Made by a program: the position numbers and the translations under genes. From assembly GCA_025677605.1 (NCBI GenBank), contig GCA_025677605.1_4110.1: DNA of 64,000 nucleotides. One strand, given 5' to 3'. Of this stretch, positions 1,237-20,295 are shown one piece after another. The stretch is from a phage. Position 1 is the first letter of the stretch, and the number at the start of each line of letters is the position of its first letter. The notes under the pieces were generated by a model. That model worked only from the letters and a program-made list of their open reading frames with translations. It searched no databases and was not told the origin of the DNA.

Positions 1237-2847
1237 TTATCCGTTTATATTTCTCCAGCTACCATCAACCAAAATTTGTATAAATTTATAATTCACACCA
1301 CCAATGTTATCAGCAGAGTTTTTACCAACATCTTGTACATTTATACCACTTAGTACTGCACCTGATGGACACACAAAGTGCCATGATAACTCATTACCAC
1401 CCGGCCAATAATAATCTTGATTGAAAAAACGTACATCTTGTACTGATCCGACAGATATATTTACATTACCGTCAGAACCAGCAGTTGAGCCGTTAACAGA
1501 ACGTACTATATGTTTCGTTCCGACAGTTGCTGATGCTGCGTTAACTGTTAATGAACCTGGAATATACAAAGAACCACCACTGTTAACTGTTACAGCACCA
1601 CCACCAGCACGAAGTCTTAGTTCATTACCTTGGAAGTATACTGCTGCACGTTCACCACCACTAGCGTTCTGGAAGAATAAGTACAAATCACCACCACCAC
1701 GAATACCAGCACGGTTAGCAATGTATAATTCACCAGACATTGTATCACCAGTTTTACGAACAAAACGATCATTTGCAGTATTTTCGCTCATCGCAACAGA
1801 TGGTTCGGAAATGTTATACAAAATTGCAGTGTTAAAGTGTGGTACGTCAATACCTGTTACTGTATGGTTATGGGTTATTGTGCGTGCATTCGCATCATCA
1901 TAAATTGGTTGTGAAGTTGATAATGCAGTTGCTGCATTGTTACCATCTACACTAAACTCCATACGGGCATTCTTATCACCAAAGATTGCAGGACCACGAT
2001 AGCCTCTACCATCATTCCATGCTCTACCACTAATGAAAACAGCATCATCCGCATCACTACCGTTAGTACCTAACATTTTACCAGTACCGTGAATATGATC
2101 AGGTATTGTGAAAGTACTAGGTGTTAATGAACCACCACCTGCTATCATTGCGTCAGTTTTGGTAATACCACTAGTTGTTATACTTCTTAAATATCCATCA
2201 CGGTTCAAGTTTGGTACTTGTTTCTTTATTGGACCATTAGTTCCTACCCATTCCCACCACATACCATCAGCAAAACACCAACCATCAGATGTTTTCCACG
2301 GTTTTGCCTGTGTGCCTTCTCTTCCATTCTGTCCACCAGTACTACCCGACATTTGTTCACGTATACTATCAACTGTTTGTCCAGATGTCAAGCTATAATG
2401 CATAATACATCCAGGTTTAGCACTCGTGTACAAACCATTAGCACCTTGAATTGATGAAGGTGTTGGGAATATAATATTCAATGTAGTTCCGCTAATAGAA
2501 GCAGTTGGAATTGATGACATTGAATAGGTTACTCTATCAACCTTAGTTCCAAGTATAGAATTGATATCCTGAATCTGTTGTTCAATTGGTGCAACTACAT
2601 CGGCAGCACTTAACATTTCAATCCAGTTAGTACCATCATGATACTTCAAAGTAAGAGTGTTTTTGTCAAATACTATCGCCCCTGCTTCACCAACAGGCAA
2701 ATCCTGAACAGGTAGTATTACCGATGAAGAATTCATTCTAATTGGTCGAGGATTAGTTGGTGTACCACCTAGTACTATTAGATTCAATGAACCATTTTCC
2801 GCAGTACTGGTTACAGTATTCTGTGGATGATTAAAACTTATGCTCAT
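1237..2847 (-). CDS. Tail fibre protein with phage tail-collar-like domain
   Basis: 536 aa; Gly/Ser/Thr-rich; segment PWKTSDGWCFADGMWWEW...VPNLNRDGYLRS matches the tail-collar pattern (GWxxCDG ... LPDLRG); late-promoter-like element upstream. Confidence 0.55.
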   Translation of the reverse strand: MSISFNHPQNTVTSTAENGSLNLIVLGGTPTNPRPIRMNSSSVILPVQDLPVGEAGAIVFDKNTLTLKYHDGTNWIEMLSAADVVAPIEQQIQDINSILGTKVDRVTYSMSSIPTASISGTTLNIIFPTPSSIQGANGLYTSAKPGCIMHYSLTSGQTVDSIREQMSGSTGGQNGREGTQAKPWKTSDGWCFADGMWWEWVGTNGPIKKQVPNLNRDGYLRSITTSGITKTDAMIAGGGSLTPSTFTIPDHIHGTGKMLGTNGSDADDAVFISGRAWNDGRGYRGPAIFGDKNARMEFSVDGNNAATALSTSQPIYDDANARTITHNHTVTGIDVPHFNTAILYNISEPSVAMSENTANDRFVRKTGDTMSGELYIANRAGIRGGGDLYLFFQNASGGERAAVYFQGNELRLRAGGGAVTVNSGGSLYIPGSLTVNAASATVGTKHIVRSVNGSTAGSDGNVNISVGSVQDVRFFNQDYYWPGGNELSWHFVCPSGAVLSGINVQDVGKNSADNIGGVNYKFIQILVDGSWRNING

Positions 2848-2878
2848 GTAAAAATCCTTTTTTGTTTAATATATATCA

Positions 2879-2886
2879 TATTTATA
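2879..2886 (-). promoter_or_regulatory. Candidate late promoter (TATAAATA on minus strand) for fibre gene
   Basis: Plus strand TATTTATA about 32 nt upstream of the 2847 start codon. Confidence 0.4.
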
Positions 2887-2887
2887 T

Positions 2888-3196
2888 CTATAGTAAATCA
2901 TTTTCCATATCATCCAATACGGAATCAATAATATTTGCAGCTAACTTTTTAGGCATCTTGAACCATTCAGAGTTAGGTTGCCTTGTTGCATTCATTTGCT
3001 TTAATCTCTTATGCACTTCCTTTTCTGCTGTTCGTGCATCGTCAAACATAACCTGATGGTATACCTCAAAATCCCTGAATGGTGAAGCAGTCTGGTAAAC
3101 ACCTAAACGCTCTTTCATCTCTGATTTTGTAGTGAAGCCTATCTTTACATATTCAGGCCATGCACTATTAGTGATTACATAACATATTTGTGACAT
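2888..3196 (-). CDS. T5orf172 / GIY-YIG-like domain protein (stand-alone, 102 aa)
   Basis: CYVITNSAWPEYVKIGFT...ERL...SPF...EVYHQVMFDDARTAEKEVHKRL...SEWF matches the GIY-YIG-like T5orf172 pattern (IYxxxN, KIGxT, R, E..H, EWF). Confidence 0.6.
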   Translation of the reverse strand: MSQICYVITNSAWPEYVKIGFTTKSEMKERLGVYQTASPFRDFEVYHQVMFDDARTAEKEVHKRLKQMNATRQPNSEWFKMPKKLAANIIDSVLDDMENDLL

Positions 3197-13213: not shown

Positions 13214-13756
13214 TTAGTATCGTGGTTCCAGTACTGCACTATAGGTTCGTTTTGGTGAACCGTCACTAACATTTTTATTACTGAATATGATAGAGTTTGT
13301 TTCTCTATTAACATACAATGTACCTTCAAGTTTTACTGTCTTTTGAACACCGCCGACAGTATAAGTGAAGTCGTTAATGTTGTAATAAACATCATATCCA
13401 GATGCAGTACTTCCAATATAACTCCATGATTCATATGTCTGACCCATCAGTACTTCATCACCGTTAACAGTGAATTGGATGAATGTCCATTTTAAATGTT
13501 CCTCGTTAGGATCTTCGTTATACAGTTTACCTTTGTAGCTAACAATTTGTGTTGGTAATTCACGTTTAGTTAACTGCTCTTTGTACTCTGATTCTTTAGA
13601 TGTGGATGTTTCGCTTTTCGGAACAATCATACCGATTACTAACATAACAACCATAAAGATACCAAAGGCTTGGAACAAACGTTTGATTGTTGTCTTTATC
13701 ATAAAATATTCCTCTTGGGTGATTTTGAAGTTTTGAACATACATAAATACTTTCAT
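13214..13756 (-). CDS. Membrane-anchored hypothetical protein (start probably Met at ~13702)
   Basis: N-terminal hydrophobic helix LFQAFGIFMVVMLVIGMIVP then a soluble beta-rich domain. Confidence 0.4.
   Translation of the reverse strand: MKVFMYVQNFKITQEEYFMIKTTIKRLFQAFGIFMVVMLVIGMIVPKSETSTSKESEYKEQLTKRELPTQIVSYKGKLYNEDPNEEHLKWTFIQFTVNGDEVLMGQTYESWSYIGSTASGYDVYYNINDFTYTVGGVQKTVKLEGTLYVNRETNSIIFSNKNVSDGSPKRTYSAVLEPRY
13743..13750 (+). promoter_or_regulatory. Candidate late promoter (CATAAATA) for gene 13762..14649
   Basis: About 30 nt upstream of the probable start ATGTCAATG (13780) with GGAG RBS. Confidence 0.35.
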
Positions 13757-14649: not shown

Positions 14650-14841
14650 AAGAACTTCTGGATGATATGGAGTTGAATAAATCAGATATTAAAAATGCCC
14701 TTATGGATGCTGCTGTTTATGTAGATAATGTCGATTATGCAACTCTACTTAATATGCCAGTAAATGACAGAGATATGCTTATTAAGGCATACAATAAGAA
14801 AGTAAAGAAGATGAACGAGAAGCACTAATACTCATAAGAAG

Positions 14842-14866
14842 CCAGCACATTGTTGCTGGTTTTTTT
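14842..14866 (+). terminator. Rho-independent terminator
   Basis: CCAGCA-cattgt-TGCTGG hairpin followed by TTTTTTTGTTTTTGTTTTTTGGGTTTTTT. Confidence 0.6.
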
Positions 14867-15123
14867 GTTTTTGTTTTTTGGGTTTTTTACTTACAAAGTA
14901 GATGAAAGAAATTATGATCTTAAAAGATTTATTCTTGAAGGAATTCATTTGATTTATATTGAACTCATCTAACTCATTTCATTCGTTAGCTGAAGAATAT
15001 TCGTTAACTACGTTAACTCATATTCATTTTAATATAATTATAAAGAACTTTAAATGATTTAATACTTGACGGGATTTGTTGAGGATATTTCATCCCCCCG
15101 CAGGGGAATGAAGATAATAAAAA

Positions 15124-15148
15124 AGAGACAATTAAGTCTCTGTTTCTT
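15124..15148 (+). terminator. Hairpin with T-rich tail (terminator-like) inside the ORF-free region
   Basis: AGAGAC-aattaa-GTCTCT then GTTTCTT; an adjacent hairpin TCATCCCCCC-gca-GGGGAATGA lies at ~15090-15112. Confidence 0.3.
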
Positions 15149-15683
15149 GACGCTGATGGCATCGGTATTATTGTATTGCGAATTTCTTAAAATTTAAACG
15201 TAATTATATTGTAAAAATATTAAGAACGAAAGCGGGTTGCTCTGTTTCTCTCTATCGCAGTCATGTGCAACGGTCGTCAGTCTTAAACATCCTGACACTC
15301 ACCTGAAAGTCTATACAATCAAACTTCAGGCTGTTTAATGAAATGAATCATCAAACTCCCTTAGCAAATCTGGTAAGGTGCGATCCTTATACATCTATCG
15401 AGGAACTCTCTGTATGCTTATCGGAGTTCTTTATTGAGCCGTGTCGCCGTGAGGGGTTCATAATATGCCCACATCTAACGGGTTTCTTTTGCTCATCGCA
15501 CTGTTGAACTGCTCATCTACCCTCTACATTTTCGAGTGGATTAGGTTCTAATTTATATGCATTTCTGCATTCAACAGGATTGTCAGTACTACATGAAACA
15601 TTATAGCACGCAATTTAAAAGTGTCTCAAAATATCTAATCTTTTTTATAAAAAAGTACTTAAAAATTTCTTAGGAATGTATTT

Positions 15684-15691
15684 CATAAATA
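15684..15691 (+). promoter_or_regulatory. Candidate late promoter (CATAAATA) for endonuclease VII-like gene
   Basis: About 32 nt upstream of ATG 15724. Confidence 0.4.
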
Positions 15692-15723
15692 TTTCATAAA
15701 CTAACTTAGATCTAAGGCACATT

Positions 15724-16215
15724 ATGAAACGAAGACTTAAAGATAGTAAGGAAGCTGCTACGTACAGAAATGAATTATTAAAAAAGCAAAAAGGTATTGA
15801 TCCTATAATCAAGGAACCGATTAAGAAACCAGTACTCGACCACTATCACTTCGAAAACCAGCATTGTAGAGAAGTTCTACAAAATGAGGTTAACGCATGG
15901 GAAGGTAAGGTGCAGAACTCTTTCAATCGATACTTGCGTCATTTAACTGATAAACCTCTTCATGAAGTACTAAGAAATCTGGCAGATTATCTTGAAAAGA
16001 ACAATAATATTCCACCAGAAGAGCAAGTGATTCATCACACGGCATTAACTGTGGATGTTAATAAGTTTAAAAGGCTCCCAGCAACGCAGCAAAACGCGAT
16101 TCTGGAAGGGTTAGGAGTTGTCCCTGGTAGCAACACTACTGCTCGTGTAAAACAGGCTAGGAAGCTTATTAAGGACGGCAAATTAAACATGTTAGATATA
16201 AAAAAAGGGAGCTAA
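15724..16215 (+). CDS. Endonuclease VII-like (T4 gp49-type) junction-resolving nuclease, lacking the zinc-binding cysteines
   Basis: VLDHYHF...AWEGKVQNSFNRYLRHL...LRNLADYLEKNNNIPP aligns with T4 EndoVII HLDHDHE...AAEGQMKHKFNRSGL...LENLLTYLKSDYTQNNIHP (from memory); 163 aa vs 157 aa. Confidence 0.6.
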   Translation: MKRRLKDSKEAATYRNELLKKQKGIDPIIKEPIKKPVLDHYHFENQHCREVLQNEVNAWEGKVQNSFNRYLRHLTDKPLHEVLRNLADYLEKNNNIPPEEQVIHHTALTVDVNKFKRLPATQQNAILEGLGVVPGSNTTARVKQARKLIKDGKLNMLDIKKGS

Positions 16216-16235
16216 GGCTCCCTTTATTCATTATA

Positions 16236-18383
16236 TTAGAAAATATCATCAAGAGTAGCATATTCAACAGTACTGAAACCGTCTTCTTTAACCACTTTAA
16301 GGATTTTTTCTGTTTTAGATAGTAATTCTTCTCTGTGAGATATTGCATATACGTTTTTACCACGTACAGCAGCCATATCCTGGAAGATTGACCATACTCT
16401 TAGAACACCACTTGAATCAAGACCCTGATCTATCATCTCATCTATGATAAGAATATTAATACTTTGATATAATGATTCATAAGTATCGCGGAAAGCACAT
16501 GATAATGCAATATTAACACGTGTTCGTTCTCCACGACTCAATTGTTTATAGTCAAAGTACTGTCCACTCTTCTCAATCTCAACACTAAGGTCATTCAAGA
16601 AGACCACATTGTGTTCTGAACCACACATATCAATATAGTACTGCAATCTGGAGTTCAAATATGAGATATTTTGTTCAATGATACGTTTACGAACATAACT
16701 ATCCTTATTGAGCAATAGTTTAACTAAGAAATCTTGGTGATTAGCCAATTTTTCAAGGTTATTGAAGTCAGTATAATCAATAGGAACCAACGAATCGGTT
16801 GTTAAAGTATTAATCTGACTAATAAACGTATTAGTTGTGTTCATTTCGCGTTCAAGTTGTTGAGTAAGTGAGTTAAAAGTCATTTCTAACTCTTTAACTT
16901 CTGATTTATTCAACGCATCTGGAACTTCCTTTACTTCTAATGCATCAAGAGCCTCATAAGAAGACATTAGTTCATCACGGTAGATGTTAATTTGTTCTTC
17001 CTCACTCTTTTTAATAAGTTCTTGAAGCTTATGGTCATGCATTTGGGCTTCGGTAAGGGTATTATAGAAAGTTACAGGTTTAGGGGGCATATCAAATATC
17101 TCAATTGCATTGATTTCATCTGATAGTGTTGCAATTTCCAACTCAACCTTACTTATATTTTCTCTGATTAGACGAATAGTATCATTAATCTTATCTTTTA
17201 TACCATTACCATGCTCATTATGCTCCAACTCTGATAAACAAAGTGGACATTTACTATCCTCAACTGATTTTAATTTCTCTTCTTCTGCTGTAAGAGATTT
17301 AATATGAGCATTCAACGAAAGATTTAGTGAATTTAGTTTCTGTGTTTTGAAATTCTTTTGCAACTGATTATCTTTTAAGATAGATTCTAGTTGTTTCCAC
17401 AGTTCCATTTCTTCATGGTTTTTTAATTCAGATTCAATATCAATAGTTTTTAATTTATCGATACTATGCTGAATAATATTTTTATTAGTGGCTAGTTCTC
17501 TATCGTACTGATCATATTTCACTGCAAGTTCTTGAACTCTACGTTCGAGTTGTAAACGTTTAGAGATGTGTAGAAGTGCTTCTTCTTTCTCTTCAGCAGC
17601 AGCATATAAATCAGAAAATACAAAAGTACTGTATACTTCTAATTCACTTTTTAGTTTTTGCACTCTATTAGCCTTATCAATTTCAAACTTATTAGCCTGT
17701 TCCTGTAAGGTTTCAATGCTGCGTTGAATGCGTTCATTACTTGCTGCAACTGTTTCAATTTTAAACTTCTCTTGGTCAGCTAAACGTTTTGACTCTTTGT
17801 TCATATCCTTTAACAGTTCAGCTTTCTCTGTTAATTGGGTAATACCTAATAGCTCTTCAATCATATCACGTTGTTTCTGTGAAGAAAGAGCAAGGAAAGG
17901 TTCAACGTTAGCATTCAGTACTACAATGTGCTCAAAAAGTAATTGAGAGATTCCTAGAATTTCATTTAGATCTTCTTGTGTATCTTTCTTTTCACCTCTT
18001 GATTCATCGAGAACTTTATTGTCCTGACCTAGAGTGATGAAATTGAAATATGTGGGACTACGCCCACGCTCAACAAGGTATTGTATACCGTCTTTCTCGA
18101 ACTCAACGGTAACTTCACAATTTTTAGCATTTGTTTTATTAACTAAGTTTGGAATTTTAATATCGTTACCAATACTTTTTCCAAATAGTCCAAAAACAAG
18201 ACCTTGAATAATTGCACTTTTACCTACACCGTTACGACGACCAGAACTATCACCACCTTCAATGACAGCATCATTGTTTTGACCGAGTACTAAAGATATG
18301 TCAGCACCATTTAAATCAATAACTTGTGGTGCATTACCAAAGGAAAAGAAATTCCTCATTGTTATACGTGTAATGTTTAACAT
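16236..18383 (-). CDS. Recombination nuclease ATPase subunit (gp46-like, SbcC/Rad50 family)
   Basis: N-terminal Walker A GRRNGVGKSAI, long central coiled coil with CPLC zinc hook, C-terminal signature/Walker B region (LSRGERTRVNIALSCAF...ILIIDE) and H-loop. Confidence 0.85.
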   Translation of the reverse strand: MLNITRITMRNFFSFGNAPQVIDLNGADISLVLGQNNDAVIEGGDSSGRRNGVGKSAIIQGLVFGLFGKSIGNDIKIPNLVNKTNAKNCEVTVEFEKDGIQYLVERGRSPTYFNFITLGQDNKVLDESRGEKKDTQEDLNEILGISQLLFEHIVVLNANVEPFLALSSQKQRDMIEELLGITQLTEKAELLKDMNKESKRLADQEKFKIETVAASNERIQRSIETLQEQANKFEIDKANRVQKLKSELEVYSTFVFSDLYAAAEEKEEALLHISKRLQLERRVQELAVKYDQYDRELATNKNIIQHSIDKLKTIDIESELKNHEEMELWKQLESILKDNQLQKNFKTQKLNSLNLSLNAHIKSLTAEEEKLKSVEDSKCPLCLSELEHNEHGNGIKDKINDTIRLIRENISKVELEIATLSDEINAIEIFDMPPKPVTFYNTLTEAQMHDHKLQELIKKSEEEQINIYRDELMSSYEALDALEVKEVPDALNKSEVKELEMTFNSLTQQLEREMNTTNTFISQINTLTTDSLVPIDYTDFNNLEKLANHQDFLVKLLLNKDSYVRKRIIEQNISYLNSRLQYYIDMCGSEHNVVFLNDLSVEIEKSGQYFDYKQLSRGERTRVNIALSCAFRDTYESLYQSINILIIDEMIDQGLDSSGVLRVWSIFQDMAAVRGKNVYAISHREELLSKTEKILKVVKEDGFSTVEYATLDDIF

Positions 18384-18392
18384 CCGTGTCCC

Positions 18393-19442
18393 TTATAATG
18401 ATCTATAGATTTGTATTAGTAGATTCTTGTCGAACATTGGAGAATCAATTTCCATGATTTGTTGTAAAACTATCTCATCAACTGATTCAGTACTTTCAAA
18501 GTGTTCACCTTCTTCCAAAAGTTCTTTGATACTTTGTTTACTTGTAACAACGTTAAACTCACGAATATTATAAAGTTTAGTAAAAGTATCACGAATAAAA
18601 CTAATCTCATCAGTTGTGATTGGAATATCAACCTGAACTTTCGAGATAGAGTTATCTTGTAAGTAATAACTTGGATCAGTTAGTAGCTCTGACAAAGTAA
18701 ATGTTCTGTATTTCGGTGCAGCATCCCATGATTTGAATGTTGGTTCTGAACCGTGTTCAAGAATCATAACACCTCTAGCATCATCCCATGTGTCTGAGAA
18801 GTTATGAGGGAAACAGTTACCAGTATAAATGACACGAGTTCCTTTGGATGTGAGTTTTGATTGTCGTTTATGGAAATGCCCACTAAAAACATACTCACAA
18901 CCACCAAAAGAACCTTCAGTCTCTTTGCCATGATCTGGCATTTCTACCATTTTGTTAAGCAAATATCCAGGTAATTCAAGATGACCAAATACATATTTGC
19001 TTTGTAATTTAGGTAGCATTTTGTATTCATCTTCAATCATAAATGGAATGAAAGTACAATCGTCGATTGTAGTAATTTCATTAATGAACTCGATGTTTTC
19101 ATAAACTTGTGCCATATTAATACTTGTAATATCGCGTTTGTTTTTATGATACATGTCATGGTTCCCAACTAAGAAGTAAACTTTATCAAAGTTGTCATTT
19201 AGTAATTGGAGAATTTGTAAACCATAGTTTAATGTTTGAATATTAATGTTGCTGCGGTTATGGAAGTAATCTCCCATAAACACACATACTTTAATACCTT
19301 TCTTTTTGGCTTCATCAATCATAAATTTAATGAAGTTCAAACAATCTTCGTTGTGCTGCTTACTGTTATTCTTTAATCCTAAATGAATATCAGTGAATGT
19401 AATTGCTTTATCAAATAGTGCCATCGTCATTTTTCCTTTCAA
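18393..19442 (-). CDS. Recombination nuclease subunit (gp47-like, SbcD/Mre11 family)
   Basis: Calcineurin-like phosphoesterase motifs: DIHLG, GDYFH, GNHD, GHxH (FSGHFHKRQ); immediately upstream of the gp46-like gene. Confidence 0.85.
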   Translation of the reverse strand: MKGKMTMALFDKAITFTDIHLGLKNNSKQHNEDCLNFIKFMIDEAKKKGIKVCVFMGDYFHNRSNINIQTLNYGLQILQLLNDNFDKVYFLVGNHDMYHKNKRDITSINMAQVYENIEFINEITTIDDCTFIPFMIEDEYKMLPKLQSKYVFGHLELPGYLLNKMVEMPDHGKETEGSFGGCEYVFSGHFHKRQSKLTSKGTRVIYTGNCFPHNFSDTWDDARGVMILEHGSEPTFKSWDAAPKYRTFTLSELLTDPSYYLQDNSISKVQVDIPITTDEISFIRDTFTKLYNIREFNVVTSKQSIKELLEEGEHFESTESVDEIVLQQIMEIDSPMFDKNLLIQIYRSL

Positions 19443-20295
19443 TCATATTCATTTCGATTTCAATCTGTCTTGTATGTGATGGTGTAAAACCATGCATCTC
19501 AAGAAGGTCGTCGCGAATGTTACGTACATTCTTCTCACTGTTCAAAATAGAACGGAAGCTATTGTTAACGAATGACGTATAGTATGAGAAAGGATTTAGT
19601 TGGACAGCGGGTTTATCTTTCTTATACAAGATACTCTCTTTAAAGAGAAGTGCATTTTTAACTAATTGTATTCTAGCATCACCCATCATTTCATCCAAAT
19701 ACGTATAATTTCTGTAGTTAGATTTGTGAGAGATCTCTTCTGCTAGTTTAATGAACATTTTACCGAGTTCATTTGTGATTTTACCATGTGTTAAGCAGAA
19801 ATCGCCATCTTCCAAGTCGCCTTTCCAATGTGAACGAACAACTTCATACAGAATACCTTCATTATCAACGATATAATGTTTAAATGGTTCAAAATTCACT
19901 CGTGTATCTGGTGGAATGTGCTCATCAGTGATAACTCGAATCACCACTTCATCCAGTGGTACATCATTTACGAATAGACCGTGCTCATCAGCATATTCCT
20001 TTGCTTTCTTAGCACTCATATTCTCTTTTTCGCGAACACTATCAAGCATTTCATTATTCAAACGTTTGATTCGTGCTGCTTTTGCCTTTTCAAGTAATTC
20101 TTCTGTGATTTCAGACTCATGAAACACAATATAATCATACATACCATAACTTTTATCCAAAAGCCAGCAGTATGATATCTTACTTTTATGTATTTCACGT
20201 AATAAGTCTGCGTTATTCAGATACTTCTTACGCTTCGGCTTGTTTATCATTGTAACTCTCCATGTAATGACCAATAGGCACAATCCGTGTGCCAT
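19411..20295 (-). CDS. Late-transcription sigma factor (gp55-like) with internal insertion; probable start Met at 20250 (MINKPK)
   Basis: N-terminus INKPKRKKYLNNADLLREI vs T4 gp55 TKPKYNYVNNKELLQAI; core LGKMFIKLAEEIS...NYTYLDEMMGDA...NPFSYYTSFVNNSF vs T4 IGLAIMLIAEGLS...SGYTQSWKQEMIADG...NPHAYITQACFNAF (from memory). Confidence 0.7.
   Translation of the reverse strand: MAHGLCLLVITWRVTMINKPKRKKYLNNADLLREIHKSKISYCWLLDKSYGMYDYIVFHESEITEELLEKAKAARIKRLNNEMLDSVREKENMSAKKAKEYADEHGLFVNDVPLDEVVIRVITDEHIPPDTRVNFEPFKHYIVDNEGILYEVVRSHWKGDLEDGDFCLTHGKITNELGKMFIKLAEEISHKSNYRNYTYLDEMMGDARIQLVKNALLFKESILYKKDKPAVQLNPFSYYTSFVNNSFRSILNSEKNVRNIRDDLLEMHGFTPSHTRQIEIEMNMIERKNDDGTI

Follow-up and report, generated by a model that had tools for sequence, protein, structure and literature searches.

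Endonuclease VII (EndoVII, gp49) of phage T4 is a textbook enzyme for the resolution of DNA junctions and is used in the laboratory to cleave mismatches, and its C-terminal helical domain is used to form a domain-swapped dimer. The published pattern of the family reads CX2-4C ... DHDH ... CX2C (PMC6083498), and both T4 EndoVII and Hpy99I carry a structural zinc at equivalent sites (PMC2699513). In this work we analysed a 64-kb stretch of phage DNA (contig GCA_025677605.1_4110.1, hereafter the window), in which an open reading frame (ORF) of 163 aa, located at positions 15724-16215 on the + strand (ATG start and TAA stop, stop codon included), encodes an EndoVII homologue. As judged from its sequence, this protein belongs to the EndoVII lineage by descent and by architecture, and yet it is devoid of the feature common to all the characterised members, that is, the structural zinc held by four cysteines (Cys4). 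The ORF is intact and lies exactly where it had been placed by an earlier reading of the bare sequence (the original prediction).

The protein is 100% identical to A4_591, "DNA endonuclease VII", of Escherichia phage A4 (ON286972.1), a 355-kb Rak2/121Q-like jumbo phage of the genus Asteriusvirus. The identity to this genome was 99.2% over positions 15000-17000, tested around the gene, and 99.1% over the whole window by local alignment. The orthologous gene is present in 121Q, PBECO4 and many others, with about 83% DNA identity, and in GenBank these orthologues are labelled either as endonuclease VII or as hypothetical protein. The gene is already annotated in GenBank as an endonuclease VII, and the loss of the zinc ligands is a clade-wide, apparently undescribed variant; no description of a zinc-less EndoVII was found in the literature, in a search that left most subscription journals outside its reach.

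Membership in the EndoVII family was supported by profile and structure comparisons. The protein matches PHROG 423 (endonuclease VII) with E 1.5e-34, its residues 2-150 covering positions 2-155 of the 159 in the profile; T4 gp49 belongs to this family as well, over its full length (E 5.4e-61). When a hidden Markov model (HMM) of the clade, with 47 members, was compared with the sequences of the PDB, T4 EndoVII was the sole credible match (E 2.4e-6). In addition, hhalign aligned the clade to the canonical Cys-bearing clade, represented by T4 gp49 and nine Cys-bearing relatives, with a probability of 99.9% and E 3.5e-34 over 135 columns. The T4 reference sequence is identical to the 1e7d/1en7 chain at all 157 positions. 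The AlphaFold2 (AF2) model, built on the clade alignment, presented a mean predicted local distance difference test score (pLDDT) of 94, with values of 97-98 across residues 11-40 and 51-90 and also of 97-98 in the former zinc region, and it shows a two-domain fold with the C-terminal helical domain. In Foldseek, the best neighbours of this model were the T4 EndoVII crystal structures, with template modelling (TM) scores of 0.68-0.70 over 157 columns. The two structure comparisons and the profile methods gave the same register to T4 EndoVII over 135-157 positions. Since the PHROG match, the profile-profile alignment, the AF2 fold and the Foldseek match all cover the full length, the similarity spans the His-Me catalytic core as well as the C-terminal helical domain, and not a generic helix alone. 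A profile search was needed to see it: a single-sequence phmmer search against the PDB gave no EndoVII match, and the pairwise BLASTP alignment with T4 gp49, in the same motif register, covered only 53 residues. Pfam PF02945 (Endonuclease_7) was matched with 18.0 bits and E 0.0027, residues 13-91 lying on profile positions 13-81 of 82.

The likeness to the T4 catalytic core that the original prediction had noticed is real, since LDHYH, N57, E60, FNRY and VLRNLADYLE align to LDHDH, N62, E65, FNRS and WLENLLTYLK of T4, a register that was checked in three alignments (BLASTP, the clade HMM against T4 EndoVII of the PDB, and hhalign). The cluster of the catalytic metal ligand and general base, D39-H40-Y41-H42 (15838-15849, +), corresponds to D40-H41-D42-H43 of T4; R49 (15868-15870, +) corresponds in the alignments to the active-site R54, the R of the "DHHRN" signature (PMC6083498); and the segment Q53-N-E-V56-N57-A-W-E60 (15880-15903, +) includes the counterparts of N62 (N57) and E65 (E60). 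The roles of the T4 active-site residues are those given in PMC6083498 and, for Hpy99I, in PMC2699513. D39, H40, H42, N57 and E60, and G61 as well, do not vary among 120 homologues with identities as low as 56%; these homologues come from jumbo phages of Escherichia, Klebsiella, Salmonella, Yersinia, Erwinia, Xanthomonas and Vibrio. R49 is invariant in an aligned subset of 47 sequences. In a wider set of 138 aligned sequences, described below, the D39-H40-H42 cluster is invariant too, save for one Glu at the T4 D40 column.

The zinc ligands behave in a very different way. In all three alignments, C23, C26, C58 and C61 of T4 correspond to D26, I29, Q53 and V56, respectively, so that D26-P27-I28-I29 (15799-15810, +) stands in place of the first zinc knuckle (C23-L-I-C26 in T4) and the second site reads LQNEVN, with Q53 and V56 replacing C58 and C61. 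The loss of all four zinc-ligand cysteines, which was the central claim of the original prediction, is thus confirmed; profile alignment and structure prediction, the checks suggested along with it, both recovered T4 EndoVII and upheld the loss. Among the 120 close homologues, the C23 column is D in every one, and D26, P27 and I28 are invariant in the clade. The C26 column holds I, T, L or V; the C58 column Q, D or E, with three exceptions; and the C61 column mostly V, with C in 17. The whole protein has one cysteine, C48, and because of this single cysteine a displaced Cys4 site is not possible; cysteines that are present but shifted were therefore ruled out. We also sought a replacement set of metal ligands, as group-specific Cys or His columns in the aligned relatives, and none was found. 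C48 was rejected as a new ligand because the column is also Cys in 6 of the 10 zinc-bearing (Cys4 or CCHC) relatives, and H73 was rejected because its column is H, W or Y.

To see how far this condition extends, 1.84 billion cluster representatives were searched with HMMER, which gave 219 relatives at E up to 1e-3; 136 representatives of normal length, together with the query and T4 gp49, made up the 138 aligned sequences. Sorted by their ligands, 10 were Cys4 or CCHC, 57 kept the first Cys only, 69 (the query included) had Asp at the first position and 2 fell outside these classes, in a sample that is skewed towards the relatives of the query, so that the ratio of zinc-bearing to zinc-less forms applies to the sample and not to all EndoVII. 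At least three of the four ligands are absent in 126 of the 138, rV5-like phages among them. On these alignments, the zinc-less state appears as a subfamily trait, fixed in the whole clade of Rak2-like jumbo phages, and common in a much larger set of EndoVII proteins rather than peculiar to the phage A4 gene. The four columns read D, L, S, V in gp126 of the rV5-like Salmonella phage PVP-SE1; C, L, S, V in Acinetobacter phage ABPH49 (Vequintavirinae); and C, S, P, L in Marinomonas phage CPP1m (Autographiviridae). One high-ranking match of this search was discarded: P0121, a repetitive surface protein of 5650 aa, was second in the list (E 1.9e-39, with 16 matched stretches of the C-terminal domain), and a separate phmmer search resolved it into 17 matches of 2-14 bits each, a summed false positive. 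Another aspect to mention concerns the Eneladusvirus proteins, in which the EndoVIIs of fHe-Yen9-04 (Yersinia; 1501-1995 of its segment) and pEa_SNUABM_47 (Erwinia; 1501-1983) have identical C-terminal halves and different N-terminal catalytic halves. The former carries an Asteriusvirus-like LQNEVN plus a 4-residue insertion and the latter carries LDRTVN, a pattern that suggests that recombination has taken place within the gene, at the boundary between its domains.

Purifying selection on the endoVII gene is strong: the ratio of nonsynonymous to synonymous substitution rates (dN/dS) against PBECO4 was 0.058, with dS 1.3. Furthermore, it seems to have no substitute in the genome. We searched the six-frame ORFs of at least 40 aa of the whole phage A4 genome with two profiles, one of the whole family and one restricted to the Cys-bearing forms; this gene was recovered with E 1e-55 and 1.7e-29, and with both profiles no second EndoVII-like ORF appeared, the next ORFs having E 0.09 or worse. 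In the phage A4 annotation there is neither RuvC nor RusA, and three small HNH endonucleases are listed. A second canonical EndoVII or another resolvase in phage A4 was rejected on these profile searches and on the annotation, in which the three HNH proteins were not individually scanned with Pfam. Among jumbo phages, EndoVII-like and RuvC-like resolvases are reported to be nearly complementary (Iyer et al., PMC7824862). Homologues of UvsX/RecA, UvsY and gp32 (single-stranded DNA-binding protein) are found elsewhere in phage A4, and with gp46, gp47 and gp55 they make up a T4-like recombination and packaging module that co-occurs with the gene. On what is established for T4, such a recombination set implies branched concatemers, which need debranching before headful packaging.

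Taken as a whole, we consider that the protein is probably (a probability of about 0.72) an active, zinc-independent junction resolvase of the T4 type that debranches DNA before packaging. By analogy with T4 gp49, this His-Me finger (beta-beta-alpha-metal) nuclease would form a homodimer and act on Holliday junctions and on other kinds of branch. D39 and N57 would hold the catalytic Mg2+, H40 would act as the general base, and H42, R49 and E60 would complete the site; nicks in both strands across the branch would debranch the product of recombination-dependent replication and make it fit for headful packaging. Expression would take place mainly from a late promoter of the gp55 type, alongside the virion genes. 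Starting from the homology, the fold, the missing ligands, the conservation, the selection, the genomic context and the promoter motif, we infer the dimer, the junction cleavage, the zinc independence and the compensating contacts. The original prediction had spoken of a junction-resolving enzyme of the EndoVII fold that is stable without the structural zinc; the fold and the ligand loss were borne out by the profiles and the AF2 model, and the stability without zinc and the junction resolution are the parts that we put forward as probable.

The conservation patterns also suggest how the fold could do without the metal. The N-terminal domain would have no Cys4 zinc clamp, the knuckle being replaced by the invariant Asp-Pro turn D26-P27. 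Invariant D26-P27-I28 suggests an Asx-Pro turn where T4 has the knuckle, with a small hairpin still predicted; in the AF2 model the beta-bridge at residues 25/32 is kept with a pLDDT of about 98. At the second site, the first residue of the helix CxxC would have become a polar helix cap, which is Q53 in this protein and D, H or S among its relatives (E is also seen). Q53 directly precedes the His-Me helix (54-70 in the AF2 model), and both D and S are residues typical of helix caps. The remaining two ligand positions would be filled by small or hydrophobic residues, I29 and V56 here, and T/L/I and V/S/T/A in relatives, and extra hydrophobic residues after the helix (L71, H73/L74 and L79), typical of the zinc-less forms, would serve as packing. 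Over the 138 aligned sequences, D or C fills the C23 column and D, H, Q or S the C58 column, with small or hydrophobic residues at those of C26 and C61. An aromatic at 73/74, together with L71 and L79, is enriched in the zinc-less forms, whereas the zinc-bearing forms have Gly, gaps or variable residues there. With odds only a little better than even, we would extend this proposal to a large undescribed subfamily of EndoVII without the Cys4 zinc (all the Rak2-like jumbo phages together with rV5-like phages and many uncultured relatives), whose members would be fully active resolvases with an Asp-Pro turn, a helix cap and added hydrophobic packing in place of the zinc, and would be insensitive, within the infected cell, to zinc limitation and thiol oxidation.

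Several points weigh against an active, zinc-independent resolvase. In T4, whose zinc site is regarded as integral, C23S and C61S abolish both DNA binding and activity (Giraud-Panis et al. 1995, according to PMC6083498), and because these mutants are dead, folding of an EndoVII without zinc is not trivially expected. AlphaFold models no metals, and the compensating contacts rest on conservation patterns; the late promoter motif is a computational prediction. The PF02945 score is below the gathering threshold of 23.6 bits, and a search of the protein against NCBIfam gave no match. In addition, about half of the wider zinc-less relatives have Leu, Ile or Val at the E65 column, and because this position varies, the chemistry of the active site may be non-uniform across the zinc-less subfamily.

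One of the alternatives maintains the metal and changes only its ligands: a structural ion could still be bound at the old site by residues other than cysteine, for example D26 together with Q, H or D at position 53 and C48 or a water molecule, and the protein would depend on a metal, though not on a Cys4 zinc. The invariant Asp at the C23 column, the D, H, Q, E or S found at the C58 column in relatives, and the frequent "D..D" and "D..H" pairings agree with this idea, since such residues can coordinate Zn2+, Mg2+ or Ca2+. However, only two of the four positions are metal-capable, the others being I/T/L and V/S/T/A, and the Gln present here, Q53, is a poor zinc ligand. Neither of the additional candidates helps: the nearly invariant C48 is not specific to the zinc-less forms, as its presence in the Cys4/CCHC proteins indicates, and the H, W or Y at the H73 column points to aromatic packing and not to a ligand. 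We regard a retained metal as unlikely. A change of occupation seems to us distinctly unlikely, that is, an active His-Me nuclease descended from EndoVII with a main job other than resolving junctions for packaging, such as nicking of mismatches or heteroduplexes, degradation of host DNA, defence or counter-defence. T4 EndoVII itself cleaves many perturbed DNA structures, the same catalytic family has given rise to restriction (Hpy99I) and homing (F-CphI) enzymes (PMC6083498, PMC2699513), and the variable E65 column of the wider subfamily would fit with such a diversification. Nevertheless, the T4 architecture is kept over the full length, C-terminal domain included, the neighbours are homologues of gp46, gp47 and gp55, the late-type promoter motif is one common to virion genes, and no other resolvase is recognisable in the phage A4 genome.

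The remaining two possibilities question whether there is a working EndoVII at all. A decaying or catalytically dead relic, able only to bind DNA or without function, could be imagined given that a motif essential in T4 is gone and that the Pfam score is sub-threshold, but the catalytic residues are invariant in 120 homologues across seven host genera, dN/dS is 0.058, the AF2 model is confident and compact, and the phage, which has recombination genes of the T4 type, offers no other candidate resolvase; we hold this to be very improbable. Finally, the missing cysteines could be an artefact of the alignment, either shifted in position or part of a likeness confined to a generic helix, as the phmmer search against the PDB without an EndoVII match and the BLASTP span of 53 residues might suggest. 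With a single cysteine in the protein, and with the profile, the profile-profile and the two structure comparisons in agreement over 135-157 positions, the chance of such an artefact is negligible. An active, zinc-independent junction resolvase is the reading that we maintain.

Regarding its genomic surroundings, the endoVII gene is flanked by a gp26-like baseplate hub operon and by a convergent gp46-like gene. According to the annotation, the gp46-like gene (16236-18383, -) is followed by a gp47-like gene (~18393-19424, -) and by a gene for a gp55-like late sigma factor (~19411-20250, -), the latter 3 kb from the promoter-like motif of endoVII; the arrangement in phage A4 resembles the order 46-47-55-49 of T4. 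In the Klebsiella phage K64-1, an extra hypothetical gene of 343 aa (1992-3023 of the segment) is placed between endoVII and the gp46-like gene, and it overlaps the endoVII stop by 4 nt. Between the two convergent genes of the window, the terminator scan found a GC-rich perfect 9-bp hairpin, AAAGGGAGC-TAAG-GCTCCCTTT (16204-16225), which holds the endoVII stop codon and has a T-run on the minus strand only. This hairpin is probably a bidirectional terminator, and it looks like the gp46 terminator serving both genes. Outside the window, the annotation of phage A4 assigns the large terminase to two neighbouring ORFs, A4_29 and A4_30 (230273-232584, with 275 bp between them), which could reflect an intron, a frameshift or a split gene.

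Upstream of the ORF, a Shine-Dalgarno-like TAAGG was read from the sequence at 15713-15717 (+), 6 nt before the ATG, and a late-promoter-like ATAAATA lies at 15685-15691 (+), 32 nt before it. The original prediction had already mentioned a late-type promoter-like element upstream of the gene, and its proposal gains weight from the enrichment of the heptamer before genes in the window: 17 of its 20 copies are at most 80 nt upstream of a gene on the same strand, against about 0.5 expected, given that 2.7% of strand positions qualify as such a promoter zone. The genes that follow the motif encode capsid, scaffold, hub, baseplate and fibre proteins, often with a spacing of about 30-32 nt to the start codon; examples are found at 2879, 6060, 7274 and 13139 on the - strand and at 13743, 15685, 20335, 30780 and 53189 on the + strand. 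By its placement, ATAAATA behaves as a genuine promoter-type signal, and on the basis of MEME analysis it has been put forward as a late promoter in Rak2-like phages (PMC5259590). In PBECO4, the full TATAAATA is present at the equivalent place upstream of endoVII. This exact T4 late promoter octamer was discarded as an informative motif in the window, where it occurs only 4 times, fewer than by chance. The terminator scan gave no terminator-like site between an RNA gene located upstream and the endoVII ORF, and for this reason earlier read-through transcription into endoVII is possible.

The RNA gene just mentioned deserves a separate description. The 900-bp unannotated gap upstream of endoVII (14829-15723) holds a structured RNA with its core at 15219-15547 (+), conserved upstream elements from about 15060, and a TTGACG element at 15147-15152 that is conserved in all copies. 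Phage A4 has four copies in all, the three paralogues being located in unannotated gaps (65156-65649, 125755-126365 and 320997-321347 of ON286972.1), and orthologues are present in PBECO4 and in the Eneladusvirus phages pEa_SNUABM_47 and fHe-Yen9-04. A search of IMG/VR with the RNA pattern gave 15 matches, of which 12 lie in contigs of about 350 kb and the remaining 3 in shorter ones (23-174 kb), and 185,579 bacterial and archaeal genomes gave none. The RNA was seen only in Rak2-like jumbo phages and in viral contigs of IMG/VR. With 17 distinct copies, RNAalifold gave 57 pairs in 11 helices, with compensatory double changes in 31 pairs; 94% of cells were paired, versus 33-43% with slid partners, and the covariation score was 0.43 versus 0.03-0.08 in the controls, a value reached by 0 of 500 shuffles. 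Conserved G-U pairs set the strand of the RNA as the + strand of the window. A search of Rfam 15 with the RNA gave no match, the best E being 0.37, far below any gathering score, and this RNA family may be a more novel item than the zinc-less EndoVII. K64-1 has no RNA element at its endoVII locus, which shows a gap of only 170 bp, and the other copies are elsewhere in phage A4 and antisense to their neighbours; thus, the RNA is not specifically tied to endoVII. Inside one of the copies, and on the RNA strand, there is a "hypothetical protein" of 49 aa, A4_511 (126001-126150 of phage A4, -), which is probably a spurious gene call.

As for the meaning of these results, the conserved ligand-free versions, apparently the sole resolvase of 350-kb phages, indicate that zinc would be an evolutionary option and not a requirement of the EndoVII fold. 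T4 on the one hand, and A4, 121Q and rV5 on the other, offer a matched pair in which the replacement of a structural metal by ordinary protein packing could be studied. If the proposal is true, it would be a natural "zinc-to-core" conversion, and possibly a source of sturdier reagents for cleaving mismatches and junctions. In practice, the zinc-less proteins score below the Pfam threshold and are therefore missed by the annotation profiles, being often recorded as "hypothetical protein"; only a few of the 120 homologues have a precomputed PF02945 match. The interest is limited by the fact that other parts of the His-Me superfamily are already known to have lost the zinc knuckle, and the function has most probably not changed.

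Compared with T4 EndoVII (PDB 1en7, 1e7d, 1e7l, 2qnc and 2qnf), the phage A4-type protein is of the same length class (163 vs 157 aa) and shares the N-terminal His-Me finger and the C-terminal helical domain, the catalytic D, H, H, R, N and E, the PHROG family, a similar company of gp46, gp47 and gp55, and the late-type promoter motif. The differences are an identity of only about 21-24%, a loop between the two beta strands that is 4 residues shorter, a 4-residue insertion before the IHH motif, and the replacement of the four zinc ligands by D, I, Q and V. Outside the jumbo phages, the cultured relatives closest to it are the rV5-like "EndoVII packaging and recombination endonuclease" proteins of the Vequintavirinae, with about 41-43% identity over 113 residues. 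In PVP-SE1 gp126 the ligands are replaced likewise, the protein reading GGLDPVL ... VLSQCVN; however, at 197 aa it has longer N- and C-terminal extensions than the phage A4-type protein, and the rV5-like gene is located in another neighbourhood, beside exonuclease genes. Hpy99I and F-CphI, restriction and homing enzymes of the EndoVII catalytic "DHHRN" family, keep the CxxC...CxxC zinc, unlike the phage A4-type protein, and differ from it in domain architecture and in their sequence-specific roles. The published CX2-4C ... CX2C pattern (PMC6083498) fails to describe the phage A4-type protein. Many His-Me finger families have no zinc knuckle and bear other decorations instead, as in phage P1 Ref, Serratia nuclease and EndoG, where the beta-beta-alpha-metal core is stabilised by extra secondary structure and no zinc (PMC5714182). 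These are, however, different families of the superfamily with unrelated decorations, whereas here it was within the T4 EndoVII architecture itself that the zinc-less state arose.

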